From a bacterium (GTDB lineage Bacteria; Campylobacterota; Campylobacteria; Campylobacterales; Arcobacteraceae): a stretch of DNA of 64,000 nucleotides. The DNA lies in contig JAHIWE010000113.1 of the NCBI GenBank assembly GCA_018816105.1, forward strand, positions 13,340 to 77,339, written 5' to 3'. The first letter of the stretch is position 1. Each line of letters starts with the position of its first letter. The notes beneath the pieces were generated by a model, which was given only the letters and a program-made list of their open reading frames with translations, was not told the origin of the DNA and did not search any database. Shown one piece after another: positions 48,544 to 60,290 of this stretch. The position numbers and the translations under genes are program-made.

Positions 48544-48653
48544 TATAAATAATTATATTTAAACTAAAATTATATAAATAAAGCTAATATGCTTTTAAAA
48601 TAAAAATAATTTTGCTATTATTTCAAAAGTTAAAATATTGGAAAAAATTATTT

Positions 48654-50837
48654 ATGTTGAAAATCCTTGCCTTACTCTTTTTTTTAAGTTTATATTCCCT
48701 CTTAGCAAAAGAACAAAATTTATCTAAAGTATCTTTACAGTTACACTGGAAATATCAATTTGAATTTGCAGGATTCATAGCAGCAAAAGAAAAAGGTTAT
48801 TATAGAGATGTTGGCTTAGATGTTGAGTTAAAAGAGTATGATTTTGGTCAAAATATTATAAAAGATGTAAGTAGCGGAAAAGTTAATTATGGAATTTATA
48901 ACTCCAATATTTTAGTTGAATATATAAAAGATGAACCTTTAAAACTAATATCTTCTTATTTCAAAAGATCAGCACTTGTATTAATAACAAAACCTGAAAT
49001 AAAATATCCGAAAGATTTAATTAACAAAAAAATCATGGCTGCTGGTATTGAGGATTTTGATTTAAATTTTAACTATCTTTTTTCTTTAGAAAAACTACAA
49101 ATTAAAGATTTAAATTTTGTTCCCCATACTTTTGATGTACAAGATTTTGCAGATAATAAAGTTGATGCAATGACAGCTTTTATTTCAGATCAACCATTTA
49201 AACTAGATAAATTAAATGTGAAATATAATATCATTGATCCTAGTAATTTTGGAGTATTTAACTTACAATTAGAACTTTTCACTTCAAACAATGAAGCCCA
49301 AAATAACACAGCTAGAACTGAAGCTTTTAGAAATGCAAGTTTAAAAGGTTGGGAATATGCTTTGAATAATCCAGCAGAGATTATTGAAATCATTTTAGAA
49401 AAGTACAATACTCAAAATCTAACAAAAGATTTTTTAGAAAATGAAGCTTTACATACAGATCGATTAATACTTCCAAAAATGTATCAAATAGGTTCTATTG
49501 ATAAAATGTTTTTATTTAGACAAATAGATATTTTATATAATCAATCAAAATTTACTTTTGAAAAAAAAGAAGAACTAATTGATAATTTTATTTTCTATAC
49601 ACAAAAAGAGTTAGAAGATAAAAGAGTAGATTTAAATTATACCTTACTTAAAAAATCTATTCCTTTTTTGATAATTATACTTTTAATTATTTTTTATAGA
49701 CAATGGCTTTTAAATAAATATAATAAAAATCTAAAAATTGAAGTTGAAGAAAAAACAGAAGAATATAAAAAGAAAAATGAAGAACTTTTAATCTCAAATC
49801 AAAACTTTAGTGATTTATTAGATACTGCAATTGAGGCAATAGCAATATTTGATGAAAAAAACAACCTAGTAAAATTAAATAACTCTGGTGAAATAATGTT
49901 TAATTACTATTTCAAAGAAAATCTGGATGTTAAAAAAGTTTATGATTTTATCCCTAAAAGCTCAATAGCACAAATTAAAGAAAAACTCAAATATGATATT
50001 ATAGAACCTTTTGAAATAGATTTATTAAGAAGTGATAAAAGCGTATTTCCAGCTTTAATTTCAGGAAAAATCATAAAAAAAGAGAATAGATTTTTCAATA
50101 TTATTACTGTTGTTGATTTAACTCAAATTAAACTAAGAGATGAATTTATTCAACAACAAGCAAAACTTGCCCAAATGGGGGAACTTCTAAGTATGATTGC
50201 CCATCAATGGAGACAACCACTAACAGCAATTAGTGCTGCTAGTGAATCTTTGAAATTAAAAGCTCTTTTAAATGATCTAAATAATGAAACAGTACAAATA
50301 GCAGCTGATGATATCTATAAATATGTGAATCACTTAAGTTGCACCATCAATGATTTTAAAAACTTTTACAAAACTAATAAATCTATTGAAACAACAACTT
50401 TAAATGATTTAGTTAAAAAATCCCTAAACATTATCGAAGATTCTATTTATTTTCATAATATTCAAATTATTAAAAATCTAGATTCTACAAGTGAAATAAA
50501 AACTTATATAAATGAAGTTACACAAGTTATTTTAAGTCTTTTACAAAATGCAGAAGATGCACACTTAGATAAAGAGATTAAAAATGCATATATTAAAATC
50601 AAAACATATGAAAATGACACATCTTTATATCTTGAAATAATTGATAATGCAGGAGGTATTGATGCTGGTATTATTGATAAAATATTTGAGCCCTACTTCT
50701 CAACTAAACTTGAAAAAAATGGAACAGGATTAGGTTTATATTTTGCAAAAAGAATTATTGATAATAATTGTGATGGATTACTAACTGTAGAAAATAATGA
50801 AAATGAAACTATTTTTAGAATCACTTTTTATAAATAA
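48654..50837 (+). CDS. Sensor histidine kinase with NMT1/THI5-like periplasmic binding domain, PAS and HK
   Basis: 'VSLQLHWKYQFEFAGFIAAKEKGYY' (NMT1/THI5-type), TM, PAS, 'IAHQWRQPL', 'GTGLGLY'. Start set at ATG 48654 (MLKILALL). Confidence 0.9.
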   Translation: MLKILALLFFLSLYSLLAKEQNLSKVSLQLHWKYQFEFAGFIAAKEKGYYRDVGLDVELKEYDFGQNIIKDVSSGKVNYGIYNSNILVEYIKDEPLKLISSYFKRSALVLITKPEIKYPKDLINKKIMAAGIEDFDLNFNYLFSLEKLQIKDLNFVPHTFDVQDFADNKVDAMTAFISDQPFKLDKLNVKYNIIDPSNFGVFNLQLELFTSNNEAQNNTARTEAFRNASLKGWEYALNNPAEIIEIILEKYNTQNLTKDFLENEALHTDRLILPKMYQIGSIDKMFLFRQIDILYNQSKFTFEKKEELIDNFIFYTQKELEDKRVDLNYTLLKKSIPFLIIILLIIFYRQWLLNKYNKNLKIEVEEKTEEYKKKNEELLISNQNFSDLLDTAIEAIAIFDEKNNLVKLNNSGEIMFNYYFKENLDVKKVYDFIPKSSIAQIKEKLKYDIIEPFEIDLLRSDKSVFPALISGKIIKKENRFFNIITVVDLTQIKLRDEFIQQQAKLAQMGELLSMIAHQWRQPLTAISAASESLKLKALLNDLNNETVQIAADDIYKYVNHLSCTINDFKNFYKTNKSIETTTLNDLVKKSLNIIEDSIYFHNIQIIKNLDSTSEIKTYINEVTQVILSLLQNAEDAHLDKEIKNAYIKIKTYENDTSLYLEIIDNAGGIDAGIIDKIFEPYFSTKLEKNGTGLGLYFAKRIIDNNCDGLLTVENNENETIFRITFYK

Positions 50838-50852
50838 GAGGTAAAAAAATCT

Positions 50853-51117
50853 AGCTTATTTGATTTCTTTGTTGTGGCTAGTTTATTGTTTCCAACTAGT
50901 TCAGGTTTTAAGATATTAAGACCTTTGATTTAAGTATACCCTTATGTAAGGTACCATTGTTATAATGATAAATCTAGTTGTAGCAATAATTATCAATGCA
51001 CTGGCAATTTTAAATCAAAAAGAAGAAGAGCATATTTTAAAAGAAGCTCATCCAAATGAAATACATATAAATGAAAAGATAAATAAACTATTGTTTTATT
51101 TAATCTATTTTCTTTAA
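50853..51117 (+). pseudogene. Deleted relic of a NavAb-like bacterial voltage-gated sodium channel gene
   Basis: Frame A (50853-50951) reads [31 protein letters not shown]; frame B (50965-51117) reads [42 protein letters not shown]. These match, from memory of NavAb, [33 protein letters not shown] and [42 protein letters not shown]. Confidence 0.85.
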
Positions 51118-51151
51118 TGGACAAGTTTTTTTATTTTGGATAAAATCTCTT

Positions 51152-51760
51152 ATGAAAAAAATTATCCTAATCTTATTTTTAATTAATCTACAAATTTTAA
51201 ATGCAAGTACAAATACTAACACTATTCTTTTCTTAGGAGATTCCCTAACAGAAGGACTAGGTGTTAGTAAAGAAGAAGCATTCCCTAATCTAGTACAATC
51301 TTATATTCAAAATGAACTCAAAAAAGATATTACAGTTATAAATGGTGGCGTTAGTGGCTCAACTACAAGTGATGCTCTAGCTAGACTTAAATGGTATATG
51401 AAGAAAAAACCATATATAGTTTTTGTAGCTCTAGGTGCTAATGATGGATTAAGAGGTCTTAATCTTGAAGAGAGTCAAAAAAACTTAGAAGAGATTATCA
51501 AATATGCTCAAGAATCCAATGCAAAAGTTTTATTAGCAGGAATGCTAATACCACCAAACTATGGACCTGAATACTCAAATCGTTTCAAAGAGATGTATGA
51601 GCAAATAAAAAACAAATATAATCTAAAAAGTATGCCTTTTTTACTAGATGGAGTTGCTGGCGAAAAAGAACTCAATCAAAATGATGGAATTCATCCAAAT
51701 GTTGAAGGTCATAAATATATTGCAAAAAAAGTTTTTGAATTTATAAAGGAAGATTTATAA
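51152..51760 (+). CDS. tesA: Periplasmic SGNH/GDSL arylesterase (TesA-like)
   Basis: Signal peptide; blocks 'GDSLT', 'NGGVSG', 'LGAND', 'DGIHP'. Confidence 0.88.
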   Translation: MKKIILILFLINLQILNASTNTNTILFLGDSLTEGLGVSKEEAFPNLVQSYIQNELKKDITVINGGVSGSTTSDALARLKWYMKKKPYIVFVALGANDGLRGLNLEESQKNLEEIIKYAQESNAKVLLAGMLIPPNYGPEYSNRFKEMYEQIKNKYNLKSMPFLLDGVAGEKELNQNDGIHPNVEGHKYIAKKVFEFIKEDL

Positions 51761-52422
51761 TGTTACAATTAAAATCACTAAAAAAAGCCTATTTACAAGG
51801 TTCACAAAAAATTGAAATATTTGAAGATTTGAATTTTCATATAGAAAAAGGCCAAACAGTTGCAATAATGGGAAAATCAGGAAGCGGTAAATCTACCCTA
51901 CTTTCACTAATTTCAGGAATTATAAAACCAGATTTGGGTGATATATCTTTAGATTCAATTTTTTACAAAGATTTAAAAGAGAGTGAATTAAATGATTTTA
52001 GAGCTACAAACATAGGCTTTATTTTTCAAAATTTTCATTTGGTTTCTTATTTAAATGCCCTTGAAAATGTAATGCTTCCTGCAAAAGTTTGTAATATTTC
52101 AAATCCTAAAGAAAAAGCCATAGAGCTTCTAAAAAGTGTAGGTTTATCACATAGATTAGATCATCTTCCATCACAATTAAGTGGTGGTGAAAAACAGCGT
52201 GTTGCAATAGCAAGAGCACTAATTCATAATCCTAAAATAATATTAGCTGATGAACCAAGTGGAAATTTAGATGAAGAAACAGGCATAGCAGTTATGGATA
52301 TACTTTTTGAGCTAATAAAAGCAAATAACACTACTTTGATACTTGTAACTCACTCAAAAGACGTTGCTATGCGTTGCGAAAAAACCTATGAACTAATCTT
52401 AGGAAAATTAACTCAATGTTAG
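51760..52422 (+). CDS. ABC transporter ATP-binding protein (YbbA-like)
   Basis: 'GKSGSGKST', 'LSGGEKQRVAIAR', 'ADEPSGNLD'; tesA-ybbA-ybbP arrangement. Confidence 0.9.
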   Translation: MLQLKSLKKAYLQGSQKIEIFEDLNFHIEKGQTVAIMGKSGSGKSTLLSLISGIIKPDLGDISLDSIFYKDLKESELNDFRATNIGFIFQNFHLVSYLNALENVMLPAKVCNISNPKEKAIELLKSVGLSHRLDHLPSQLSGGEKQRVAIARALIHNPKIILADEPSGNLDEETGIAVMDILFELIKANNTTLILVTHSKDVAMRCEKTYELILGKLTQC

Positions 52423-54920
52423 TTTTAGAACTTGTTTACAAGGCATTAGCTCGATCAAAATCTTTTAGTTTAATATTCATACTAAATTTTTGTTTAGCAA
52501 TTGCCTCACTTTCTTATTTACAATTTTTTAAAGGTAGTATGGAAAGCTCCCTTGATTCAAAAGCAAAGATTCTTCTTGGCTCTGACTTAAGTATAAGCTC
52601 TAGATTTCCCATAAATCAAGAGCAAATTGAAGAGATTAAAAATAAACTTCCTAAAATAAAAGATTTTTCCCAAGGTGTTTCAACTATTAGTATGATAGCT
52701 AGCCAAAAAAGAGCAAGACTAATGGAAGTAGTTAAAATAAATAAAGGATATCCTTATTATGGTGGATTAATTTTTAATGACAAAACAATCTATCCAAAAG
52801 GTGAAGCCTTACCTTTAGCAAATGAAGTTTGGGTTTATAAAGAAGTTTTAGATTTGCTTGATTTGAAAATAGAAAGCCAAATAAAAATTGGGAAAGCAAA
52901 CTTTATTATTAAAAAAATAATTGAAGATGACACACTAAAAACTATTAGTTTCAGCGGTTTCATGCCTAAAATTTATATAAGTGAAGAGGGTTTAACAAAG
53001 ACCGAATTATTGCAGTTTGGATCAACTGCTTCTTATAAATTAAACTATCTCTTTGAAGAAAATCTAGACAATGATAAATTAGAAAAAATTGAAAATGACT
53101 TAGAAAAAAGTATCGATCAAGATATGAGAGTTCTTTCTCCAAATGATGGAAGAGATAGATTACTAAGGGTTTTAAACTTTGTTACAAACTTCTTATCTTT
53201 AGTTTCACTTATTTCATTTTTCTTAGGTTTAGTAGGACTCATTTATTTATATTCAGGATTTTTACTAAAACATCAAAAAGATATCACAGTTTTAAGTGAC
53301 CTTGGTTTGAGTAAAAAAACTTTAGGAATTACATATATTTTACACCTATTTGTACTTATTTCTATTTCAACTATTATTGTTTTTTCACTTATGACAATAT
53401 CAGCACAATTTATAACACCAATAATTGAAAAGCTTATTGATTTTAATTTTGATTTAGCTTTAGATTATAGTTTTTTCTTTAAATCAGCACTTGTATTATT
53501 GCTTCTGAGTTTAAGTATTGGAATTCCTTTGATATTGCCTTTACTTCAAAGAGAAAAACGACCATTTTATAAGGTGATTTTAGGATTTATTCCTTTTATT
53601 GTTCTTTTGTTACTTATATCTCATTTTGTTACACCAAATAAAAATGTAGGGCTTTTCTTTGCAAGTGCTGTGTTGATATTAATCATTTTATTTTTTACAA
53701 TAGGTTCTATAATTTTAAAGAAACTTGATTTTGCAGGACATTTAGAAAATCTATCTTTATCTTTGGCTTTTAAAAATATAATTAGACAAAAGAAAACCTC
53801 TCTTACTTTATTTACAGCCATTGTTTTATGTACGACTTTCTTTAGTCTTATTCCACAAGTTGGCTCATCACTAGGGGCTTCATTAACTCAAAGTATTGAA
53901 AATAGACCAAGATTTTTTGTAGTTGATGCTAAAGAAGAACAACTAAAAGATATACAAACTCAAGTTAATAGTATGGGTGCACAATTAGAAAATATAGCTC
54001 CAATGATTCGAGGACGAATAATAAAAGTAAATGATATTGATTTTACAACACACTCAATAAAAAATGCAGATGAAGAGCTAAAAGCTGAAAAAAATGAACT
54101 AAAAAACAGAGCAGTTAATCTCTCATATAGAAGTAAATTAAAGCAAAGTGAAGAGATAATCCAAGGACGAGAGTTCAGCGGTGTGTATGACTCAAAAGAC
54201 TTTTCAAAGCCTATTGAAGTTAGTGTTGAAAAAAGATTTGCTAGCCAAAGAGGAATAAAACTAAATGATACCCTTGTATTTGATATTTTAGGTTTAGAAC
54301 TAAAAGCAATTGTTGTAAATATAAGAGCAGTAAAATGGACTGAGTTTGTACCAAATTTCTTTTTAATCTTACAAGAAGGCGCTTTAAATGATGCACCAAA
54401 AACTATTTTAGCAACCATTTCTTCAGGAAATTATGATGCAACTTCAATGCTTATAAAATTATCAGAACTTTTTCCTACATTAACAGTAATTGATGTTAAA
54501 AATCTATTTGAATCTTTTGCTAAATTAGTAGAAAGTGTAACTAATATAACTGATAAAATGAGCATCTACTCGATAGTTATTGGACTTTTGATGAGTTTTA
54601 TTATTATTCAATATCAAATGAACTTACAAAAAAACAACATCCTAAGATTGAAAATGATTGGTATAAAAAATAAAACAATCAGAAACTCTTTTTTAATAGA
54701 GTTTGGATTAATATCATTTACAGCAAGTAGTTTTGGAATAGCTTTTGGAAGTATTGGTTCATATATTATAAGTGGCATACTTTTTGATTCGTATTGGGAT
54801 TTTAGACCTGATGTTCTTTTAGCTTATCTTTTTTTTATACCAATATTAACTATCTTGATTGTGAGTTTATTTACTTCTAAAATGATTCACCAAAAAGAGA
54901 ATGTTCTTTTTGGTGAGTAG
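52416..54920 (+). CDS. ABC transporter permease (YbbP/FtsX-like)
   Basis: Two periplasmic plus TM-cluster halves, 'YPYYG', 'GRII', 'VKWTEFVPNFF'. Confidence 0.88.
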   Translation: MLVLELVYKALARSKSFSLIFILNFCLAIASLSYLQFFKGSMESSLDSKAKILLGSDLSISSRFPINQEQIEEIKNKLPKIKDFSQGVSTISMIASQKRARLMEVVKINKGYPYYGGLIFNDKTIYPKGEALPLANEVWVYKEVLDLLDLKIESQIKIGKANFIIKKIIEDDTLKTISFSGFMPKIYISEEGLTKTELLQFGSTASYKLNYLFEENLDNDKLEKIENDLEKSIDQDMRVLSPNDGRDRLLRVLNFVTNFLSLVSLISFFLGLVGLIYLYSGFLLKHQKDITVLSDLGLSKKTLGITYILHLFVLISISTIIVFSLMTISAQFITPIIEKLIDFNFDLALDYSFFFKSALVLLLLSLSIGIPLILPLLQREKRPFYKVILGFIPFIVLLLLISHFVTPNKNVGLFFASAVLILIILFFTIGSIILKKLDFAGHLENLSLSLAFKNIIRQKKTSLTLFTAIVLCTTFFSLIPQVGSSLGASLTQSIENRPRFFVVDAKEEQLKDIQTQVNSMGAQLENIAPMIRGRIIKVNDIDFTTHSIKNADEELKAEKNELKNRAVNLSYRSKLKQSEEIIQGREFSGVYDSKDFSKPIEVSVEKRFASQRGIKLNDTLVFDILGLELKAIVVNIRAVKWTEFVPNFFLILQEGALNDAPKTILATISSGNYDATSMLIKLSELFPTLTVIDVKNLFESFAKLVESVTNITDKMSIYSIVIGLLMSFIIIQYQMNLQKNNILRLKMIGIKNKTIRNSFLIEFGLISFTASSFGIAFGSIGSYIISGILFDSYWDFRPDVLLAYLFFIPILTILIVSLFTSKMIHQKENVLFGE

Positions 54921-59933: not shown

Positions 59934-59966
59934 GAGTTAAATTGTATAATTTTGTGAGTATTTTAG

Positions 59967-60290
59967 TTAGGTAAACCAATAAGCCGCGTTTTGTTTTTAA
60001 GACAATAATTTATCTAGCTACTAAATTACTTTAGTAGTCTTGCGAAGACCAATTTCGTGAAGTAAATACCTAGTCTTCTTGCTGCAGGTTGGGTTTACAA
60101 AGCACTTAAGATTACTCAAAAGTCTGGTAGGCTCTTACCCCACCGTTTCACCATCACCGAAAAATCGGCTGTCTATTCTCTGTTGCACTATCCCTTAGGT
60201 TACCCCAGCCATCATTTAGATGGAACCTTACTTCACAGCAGCCCGGACTTTCCTCTTGATTTTACTCAAGCTATTGTCTGGTTTACCTAA
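59967..60290 (-). ncRNA. rnpB: RNase P RNA
   Basis: Minus strand has GAGGAAAGUCCGGGC near the 5' end and ACAAAACGCGGCUUAU near the 3' end; the termini pair (ttaggtaaacca / tggtttacctaa) as P1. Confidence 0.96.

Follow-up and report, generated by a model that had tools for sequence, protein, structure and literature searches.

A pseudogene of a NavAb-type sodium channel beside a sensor kinase gene in the Arcobacteraceae

The kinase-tesA gap and its flanking genes

The stretch of DNA analyzed here, hereafter called the window, is 64 kb long and comes from an Arcobacteraceae bacterium of marine or groundwater origin. Judged by the genes that flank the locus, its nearest named relatives are Poseidonibacter ostreae (83% amino acid identity for the TesA-like protein) and Arcobacter sp. 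s6 (70% for the kinase). The locus is a gap of 314 bases on the + strand. It opens after the stop codon that ends a sensor histidine kinase gene and closes at the start of a tesA-like gene at 51152. The kinase gene (48654..50837, + strand) is intact in the ORF list, and Pfam analysis of identical contigs assigns an NMT1-type periplasmic binding domain, HisKA and HATPase_c to its product. Read from the ATG at 48654 it encodes 727 amino acids, and its homologues are 70–90% identical. The start is ambiguous, as the longest ORF begins with a TTG at 48612 (741 amino acids), but gene callers and all homologues use the ATG. The C-terminus (...ETIFRITFYK) is native, the homologue P0127 ending with ...ETIFRITFNK. 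On the other side of the gap, also on the + strand, the tesA-like gene (51152..51760; GDSL lipase/thioesterase, Pfam PF13472 and PF00657) is followed by genes for a YbbA-like ABC ATPase (51760-52422) and a YbbP-like FtsX permease (52416-54920). The best NCBIfam matches of these three proteins are TesA, YbbA/LolD and YbbP, all under the curated cut-offs. A terminator scan gave no terminator-like site after the kinase gene. A promoter scan returned a single promoter-like site on the + strand, TGGACA-17-TAAAAT at 51118-51146. Elsewhere in the window lies a full-length bacterial class A RNase P RNA (59964-60289, - strand, 250.8 bits); no other Rfam family reached the gathering threshold in the window.

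Channel-derived pieces and the intact orthologue

A preliminary description of this gap, made by reading the DNA, had recognized in it three collinear pieces of a NavAb-type sodium channel gene, and all three are present at the coordinates and in the frames it gave. They lie on the + strand within 50853-51085 and correspond to codons 77-99, 186-195 and 207-249. The first piece (50853..50921) covers S3, the S3-S4 loop and the start of S4 up to the gating charge R1, and its translated string spans 50850-50921. The second piece (50922..50950) covers the end of the P2 helix and the turn into S6. It reads RPLI*VYPY at 50919-50945, where a TAA at 50931-50933 replaces Glu189, the substitution of Glu by a stop that had been proposed. 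The third piece (50958..51085), reached after a change of frame, covers the C-terminal half of S6, the neck and the start of the coiled coil; its translated string spans 50962-51090.

The homology is directly observed. When each half of the fossil was compared with all PDB chains using phmmer, the top 50 or so matches were NavAb entries (E about 1e-8 and 1e-9), with names such as 'Ion transport protein', NavAb fusions and chimeras. A tBLASTn search of the whole 64-kb window with NavAb, the check that the preliminary description had proposed, gave collinear matches for NavAb 77-101 (E = 3e-7) and for NavAb 185-193 together with 208-250 (joint E = 7e-12). The query was identical to residues 5-271 of PDB 5yua. 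These matches are unique: all others in the window had E > 0.1, and thus no second channel copy was found there. The outcome named beforehand as a refutation, an absence of significant collinear matches to bacterial Nav channels, therefore did not occur. The first tBLASTn match could be extended into the kinase C-terminus (RITFYK versus RISFFK in NavAb). This extension was rejected as chance, because kinase orthologues without a downstream channel gene end likewise. Pfam recognized no family in the conceptual read-through, and the fossil is thus findable only via close homologues. A search of a large protein collection with the read-through alone returned 4 short proteins, versus thousands of homologues for full-length NavAb.

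NavAb of Aliarcobacter butzleri RM4018 (PDB 3RVY, 5YUA) aligns with the fossil over residues 77-99, 185-193 and 208-250. The first piece is near-identical to NavAb, and the last block of the fossil shares 63% identity with it. The parts listed as missing in the preliminary description, namely S1-S2, the S4 charges R2-R4, S5, the P helix and the TLESWS selectivity filter, are indeed absent, and the codon for R1 (R99) survives. A complete six-helix Ion_trans domain (S1-S6) in one started ORF is not present: codons 1-76, 100-185, about 196-206 and 250-269 are gone. As for the S4 voltage sensor, the R99 codon (50919-50921) alone is left, and R102-R108 fall inside a 258-base deletion. Unlike NavAb, the fossil also has no start codon and carries a stop and a frameshift, so it cannot form a channel. 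Given the missing pore, no voltage-gated sodium current would be expected from the remnant on expression.

An intact counterpart is found on L014, a single 3.1-kb JGI metagenome contig whose sample number belongs to the same series as those of several fossil-bearing contigs. Compared with the window, its ligA gene is 94.1% identical over 1228 bases and its tesA-like gene 95.6% over 684 bases. The gene order on L014 is ligA, kinase remnants, an intact 269-codon channel gene and tesA, so that the synteny comparison suggested earlier, with a relative that has an intact channel gene upstream of the tesA-like gene, could be made. The channel protein (P0045) shows 85% identity with NavAb along its whole length, matches Pfam Ion_trans (PF00520) with E = 6.7e-40 and has all four S4 arginines. 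The TLESWS filter, deleted in the window, is present in P0045 and in the outgroups used below. In a ranking of homologues against the fossil pieces, P0045 came second after P0044, and P0045 is the one encoded at the same genomic position. At the nucleotide level, the first piece is identical to L014 1885-1953 at 58 of 69 bases (84%) and the third to L014 2274-2401 at 112 of 128 (87.5%). The 39-base stretch 50912-50950, which includes a TAAGA junction discussed below, matches L014 2202-2240 at 31 positions (79.5%). Since the pieces match the L014 channel gene in order and orientation, we consider it settled, as far as sequence comparison can tell, that the window holds the orthologous channel locus in a decayed state. 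The one part of L014 with independent support is the joint of its kinase deletion, which was seen in the sequencing run X4. Downstream of the fossil, a block of 107 bases that extends into tesA (51094-51200) shares 99% identity with L014 2482-2588, compared with 83-88% for the fossil. Its first part (51094..51151, + strand) is the native upstream region of the tesA-like gene and is not channel-derived.

Among GTDB genomes, P. ostreae is the sole meaningful relative for the TesA-like protein, the other two matches having 42% and 26% identity. Upstream of tesA, P. ostreae carries a tRNA gene and an ATPase gene, and neither a kinase nor a channel gene, so that it is uninformative on synteny. In metagenomes one locus was found, L016 (80% amino acid identity), with a different upstream gene. 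The neighborhood of NavAb-type genes is not conserved: at the L012 locus a MerR-family regulator gene and DnaJ lie upstream, and at L015 a hybrid histidine kinase gene is directly upstream of the channel gene. Sensor kinases recur near Arcobacteraceae channel genes, considering the L012 and L015 loci, but they belong to different families.

Lesions and loss of constraint

The lesions were mapped base by base against the L014 channel gene, using global alignment blocks and inspection, and are directly visible in this alignment. Of 810 channel bases, 233 (about 29%) are left. At the 5' end, at least 228 coding bases (through codon 76) are lost together with the expression signals. A spacer of 15 bases (50838..50852, + strand) separates the kinase stop from the point where channel-derived sequence begins, and its origin could be either the native 3' flank of the kinase gene or a relic of the channel ribosome-binding region, with about equal fit. 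For the former, window 50838-50861 matches the 3' flank of the L017 kinase gene (CTAGGCAAAAAGCCTAGATTATTT), and the blastn alignment runs 24 bases past the stop. For the latter, window 50804-50852 was aligned with the L014 channel ribosome-binding region (GGAGAAAAATATG), with a score that was reached by 50 of 500 shuffles and is therefore not significant. On L017, a perfect hairpin (CTAGGC-AAAAA-GCCTAG, L017:2449-2472) follows the kinase stop and lies between the convergent kinase and chemoreceptor genes. Window 50838-50861 resembles a degraded copy of this hairpin, which may be the ancestral kinase terminator.

The largest internal lesion is an in-frame deletion of 258 bases with its junction at 50917..50921 (+ strand). 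L014 1949-2206, i.e. codons 100-185, is absent, which takes out the S4 charges R2-R4, the S4-S5 linker, S5, the P helix, the TLESWS filter and most of P2. The preliminary description had suggested loss through microhomology where 'ILR' joins 'I(V)R-PL'. At this junction we find an exact overlap of 5 bases, TAAGA, within ATATTAAGAACTTTAA and ATTGTAAGACCTTTAA, an imperfect repeat with 14 of 19 bases matching. An overlap of at least 5 bases has a probability of 0.013 for random junctions in the channel gene. The earlier suggestion is thus borne out at the nucleotide level, and we infer that the deletion was microhomology-mediated. The nonsense mutation in codon 189 changes GAA to TAA, with a G to T at 50931 that both outgroups place on the fossil lineage. 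The N-terminal half of S6 has collapsed to 7 bases (50951..50957, + strand) versus 33 in L014. This net loss of 26 bases (about 10 + 16) shifts the reading frame and accounts for the frameshift reported earlier. At the 3' junction (51083..51093, + strand), with AGAT(T)AAA-like repeats, 80 bases of L014 (2402-2481) are represented by 8 window bases; the net loss is 72 bases and takes away codons 250-269 along with the original stop codon. There are thus at least five separate lesions relative to the L014 orthologue, four deletions or deletion clusters and one nonsense mutation, in agreement with the stepwise deletions that had been proposed.

The 3' deletion also removed the stop, so that the frame of the third piece runs on to 51117 and forms a 50-codon ORF (MINLVV...FYLIYFL; 50965..51117, + strand) made of the third piece and former 3' untranslated sequence. 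This ORF, present in the ORF list, is annotated as a 50-amino-acid hypothetical gene on JGI and Logan contigs and forms a protein cluster of its own, P0001, with members on 23 contigs. It is most likely a spurious annotation and not a real gene.

Changes within the channel gene were polarized with two outgroups, the channel genes of L012 and L015, in an alignment that is ungapped over 267 codons. The fossil and L014 differ at 33 of 226 aligned bases. Of these differences, 25 fall on the fossil lineage (14, 4 and 7 at the three codon positions; 20 nonsynonymous, including the stop, to 5 synonymous). Only 4 fall on the L014 lineage (0, 0 and 4; 1 nonsynonymous to 3 synonymous), and 4 ambiguous ones (1, 1 and 2) were not assigned to a lineage. 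Constraint is thus visibly relaxed on the fossil side. The counts indicate that the fossil decays neutrally, about 11% of the remaining bases having changed regardless of codon position. For the flanks, the comparison between window and L014 gave a dS of 0.28 for ligA and 0.146 for tesA, with dN about 0.012. The pooled flank dS of about 0.23 corresponds to a neutral divergence of about 0.12 substitutions per site along each lineage. The fossil lineage matches this with 0.11 changes per site, which suggests that the channel was inactivated at or soon after the split of the window and L014 lineages.

The fossil is fixed in the population. An identical fossil structure was found in 8 independent contigs (ENA, JGI, Logan), with 3 SNPs over 421 bases, and the public runs that carry the sequence come from groundwater, marine/seawater, estuary, plastic-biofilm and root metagenomes. 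In four runs (groundwater, marine, plastic, estuary), SNPs were the only variation in the fossil (50854 G>A, 50884 T>C), and no indels or alternative joints were found. The preliminary description had proposed to correlate the channel loss with habitat. This looks unpromising, since the fossil lineage occurs in groundwater, seawater, estuary and plastic samples and the intact lineage has been seen alongside it, in at least one sample of marine origin and within the same JGI metagenome number series.

Origin of the fossil and reciprocal decay of the kinase

On L014, unexpectedly, it is the kinase gene that is degraded. The 2.2-kb gene is reduced there to about 400 bases (L014:1212-1656, corresponding to window 48612-50837), left as three collinear pieces equivalent to window 48625-48741, 49266-49495 and 50756-50803. 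One deletion removed 527 bases, with a joint from 48739 to 49267 and ATA inserted; the L014-type joint was seen independently in the marine run X4 at a depth of 27, versus about 350 for the window type. With the L017 kinase gene (90% identical) as outgroup and 390 bases compared, 38 changes fall on the L014 lineage (20, 10 and 8 at the three codon positions) and 9 on the window lineage, where the kinase is intact (1, 0 and 8). Neighboring genes have thus become pseudogenes reciprocally: the window lineage lost the channel and the L014 lineage the kinase. The reciprocal fossils imply that the ancestor had kinase and channel genes side by side on one strand, where they perhaps formed one transcription unit. 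No outgroup with both genes intact was found among the closest kinase orthologues, which have different neighbors and no channel gene: L017 (90% amino acid identity) has a convergent chemoreceptor gene as kinase neighbor, and L018-L020 (74%) also differ.

Taken together, 50853-51085 is with high confidence the dead remnant of a gene for a NavAb-type homotetrameric voltage-gated sodium channel, decayed neutrally since about the time the lineages split. In the course of events that we propose, the common ancestor would have carried ligA, the sensor kinase gene, the channel gene and the tesA-like gene in this order on one strand. The channel gene would have been inactivated in the window lineage soon after the split, followed by several separate neutral events. 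The 5' end with its expression signals would have been lost, and a microhomology-mediated in-frame deletion of 258 bases probably removed the voltage-sensor charges and the entire pore module. The nonsense mutation at Glu189, the small deletions in S6 that shift the frame and the removal of some 70 bases from the 3' end, of which the 50-codon ORF is an accidental product, would be further steps. The first two pieces are without a start codon, and there is neither a pore nor a voltage sensor, so that, going by what the DNA retains, nothing functional is left.

Other explanations of the remnant can be considered. The 50-codon ORF could be a live small membrane protein, half S6 plus neck, co-opted as a membrane peptide or modulator. 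Its frame is open and begins with an ATG, gene callers report it on several contigs, an AAGG motif precedes the ATG by 13 bases, and the lack of a terminator-like site after the kinase gene would allow read-through transcription into it. A low-depth wastewater library labelled as RNA-Seq also covers the ORF (50939-51381), with DNA carry-over being possible. However, the fossil-lineage changes inside it, 8 nonsynonymous and 1 synonymous, are as expected without constraint, its last 10 or so codons derive from former untranslated sequence, the motif resembling a Shine-Dalgarno sequence is weak and at an unfavorable distance, and Pfam recognizes no family in the 50 amino acids. Its identity in all sampled contigs reflects the low population diversity of the whole locus and not selection. 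We regard a living protein here as very unlikely. Engineered pore-only constructs of bacterial Nav channels (S5-P-S6; for example those of NavMs and NavSp1) share part of S6 and the neck with this ORF, and PDB pore chains of 149 amino acids were among the phmmer matches. Such constructs depend on S5, the P loop and an entire S6, whereas the ORF has the C-terminal half of S6 only. It is also without the coiled coil, so that, unlike them, it cannot form a pore.

That a remnant region was retained for so long rather than fully deleted could in principle hint at a residual role, although the substitution pattern does not support this. Such a role might be that of regulatory DNA for the tesA-ybbAP-like genes (promoter, leader or transcript-stabilizing element), since the remnant has stayed undeleted over about 0.12 neutral substitutions per site and is directly upstream of tesA. 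Against this, the sole promoter-like site of the + strand comes after the fossil. The segment that holds it is conserved to 99% in L014, where it likewise precedes tesA and the channel gene is intact. The fossil itself evolves at the neutral rate, and RNase P is the only Rfam match in the window. A regulatory function thus appears highly improbable. Chance similarity or low complexity in AT-rich intergenic DNA, or a gap that is an assembly artefact, has a practically negligible probability. The genome is AT-rich, Pfam is blind to the conceptual translation and the fossil-only protein search gave just the 4 matches, but E values from 1e-7 to 1e-12 against a 64-kb target and the 83-88% nucleotide identity to a syntenic intact gene, in the correct order and orientation, argue against chance. 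The recurrence of this structure, in no fewer than 8 contigs and no fewer than 5 runs of separate studies, argues against an artefact.

The locus is therefore a pseudogene, putatively unitary and decayed in place, by descent from a NavAb-type bacterial Nav channel gene and a case of ordinary gene decay. It shares with other decaying bacterial genes, in which a deletional bias and microhomology-mediated deletions are common, the multiple deletions, the nonsense mutation, the near-neutral ratio of nonsynonymous to synonymous changes and the shrinkage, here to 29%. The fossil itself shows nothing unusual; what differs from ordinary decay is that the sister lineage degraded the adjacent kinase instead. 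This reciprocal loss is most likely a coincidental decay in a variable neighborhood, a reading favored by the different gene neighbors that both the kinase and tesA have in the next relatives. Alternatively, the reciprocal loss could mark an ecotype split, with kinase and channel as alternative or mutually interfering inputs to one physiological circuit, which we consider unlikely. If it were true, the two lineages would provide paired natural knockouts for probing the role of a NavAb-type channel in its native host.

For the gating and pharmacology of sodium channels, those of the NavAb type serve as the main structural model. To our knowledge, next to nothing has been established about what they do in the bacteria that carry them. 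NaChBac and NavBP, of alkaliphilic Bacillus, for which a physiological role has been described, come from the family to which NavAb belongs, that of tetrameric bacterial Nav channels with a single domain of six helices, and are tied to motility, chemotaxis and pH homeostasis in alkaliphiles. For the part on pH homeostasis, PMC4225499 gives a summary. The host of the fossil, in contrast to these Bacillus species, belongs to the Arcobacteraceae, and its channel gene is dead. The term natural knockout used in the preliminary description holds for this locus only, its scope being the 64-kb window, in which there is no second copy. We thus have a free-living, widespread member of the Arcobacteraceae that would have been without this channel copy for roughly 0.1 neutral substitutions per site, while a co-habiting sister keeps it. 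If isolates exist, the lineage pair would be natural near-isogenic material for physiology. In the literature that was searched, we found no account of a bacterial Nav gene in decay. What merits following here is confined to the paired fossils of channel and kinase and to the intact lineage that occurs alongside. The 258-base junction offers a well-resolved example of a deletion that was apparently microhomology-mediated, and in public metagenome annotations the tail of the fossil stands mis-annotated as a hypothetical gene of 50 amino acids.
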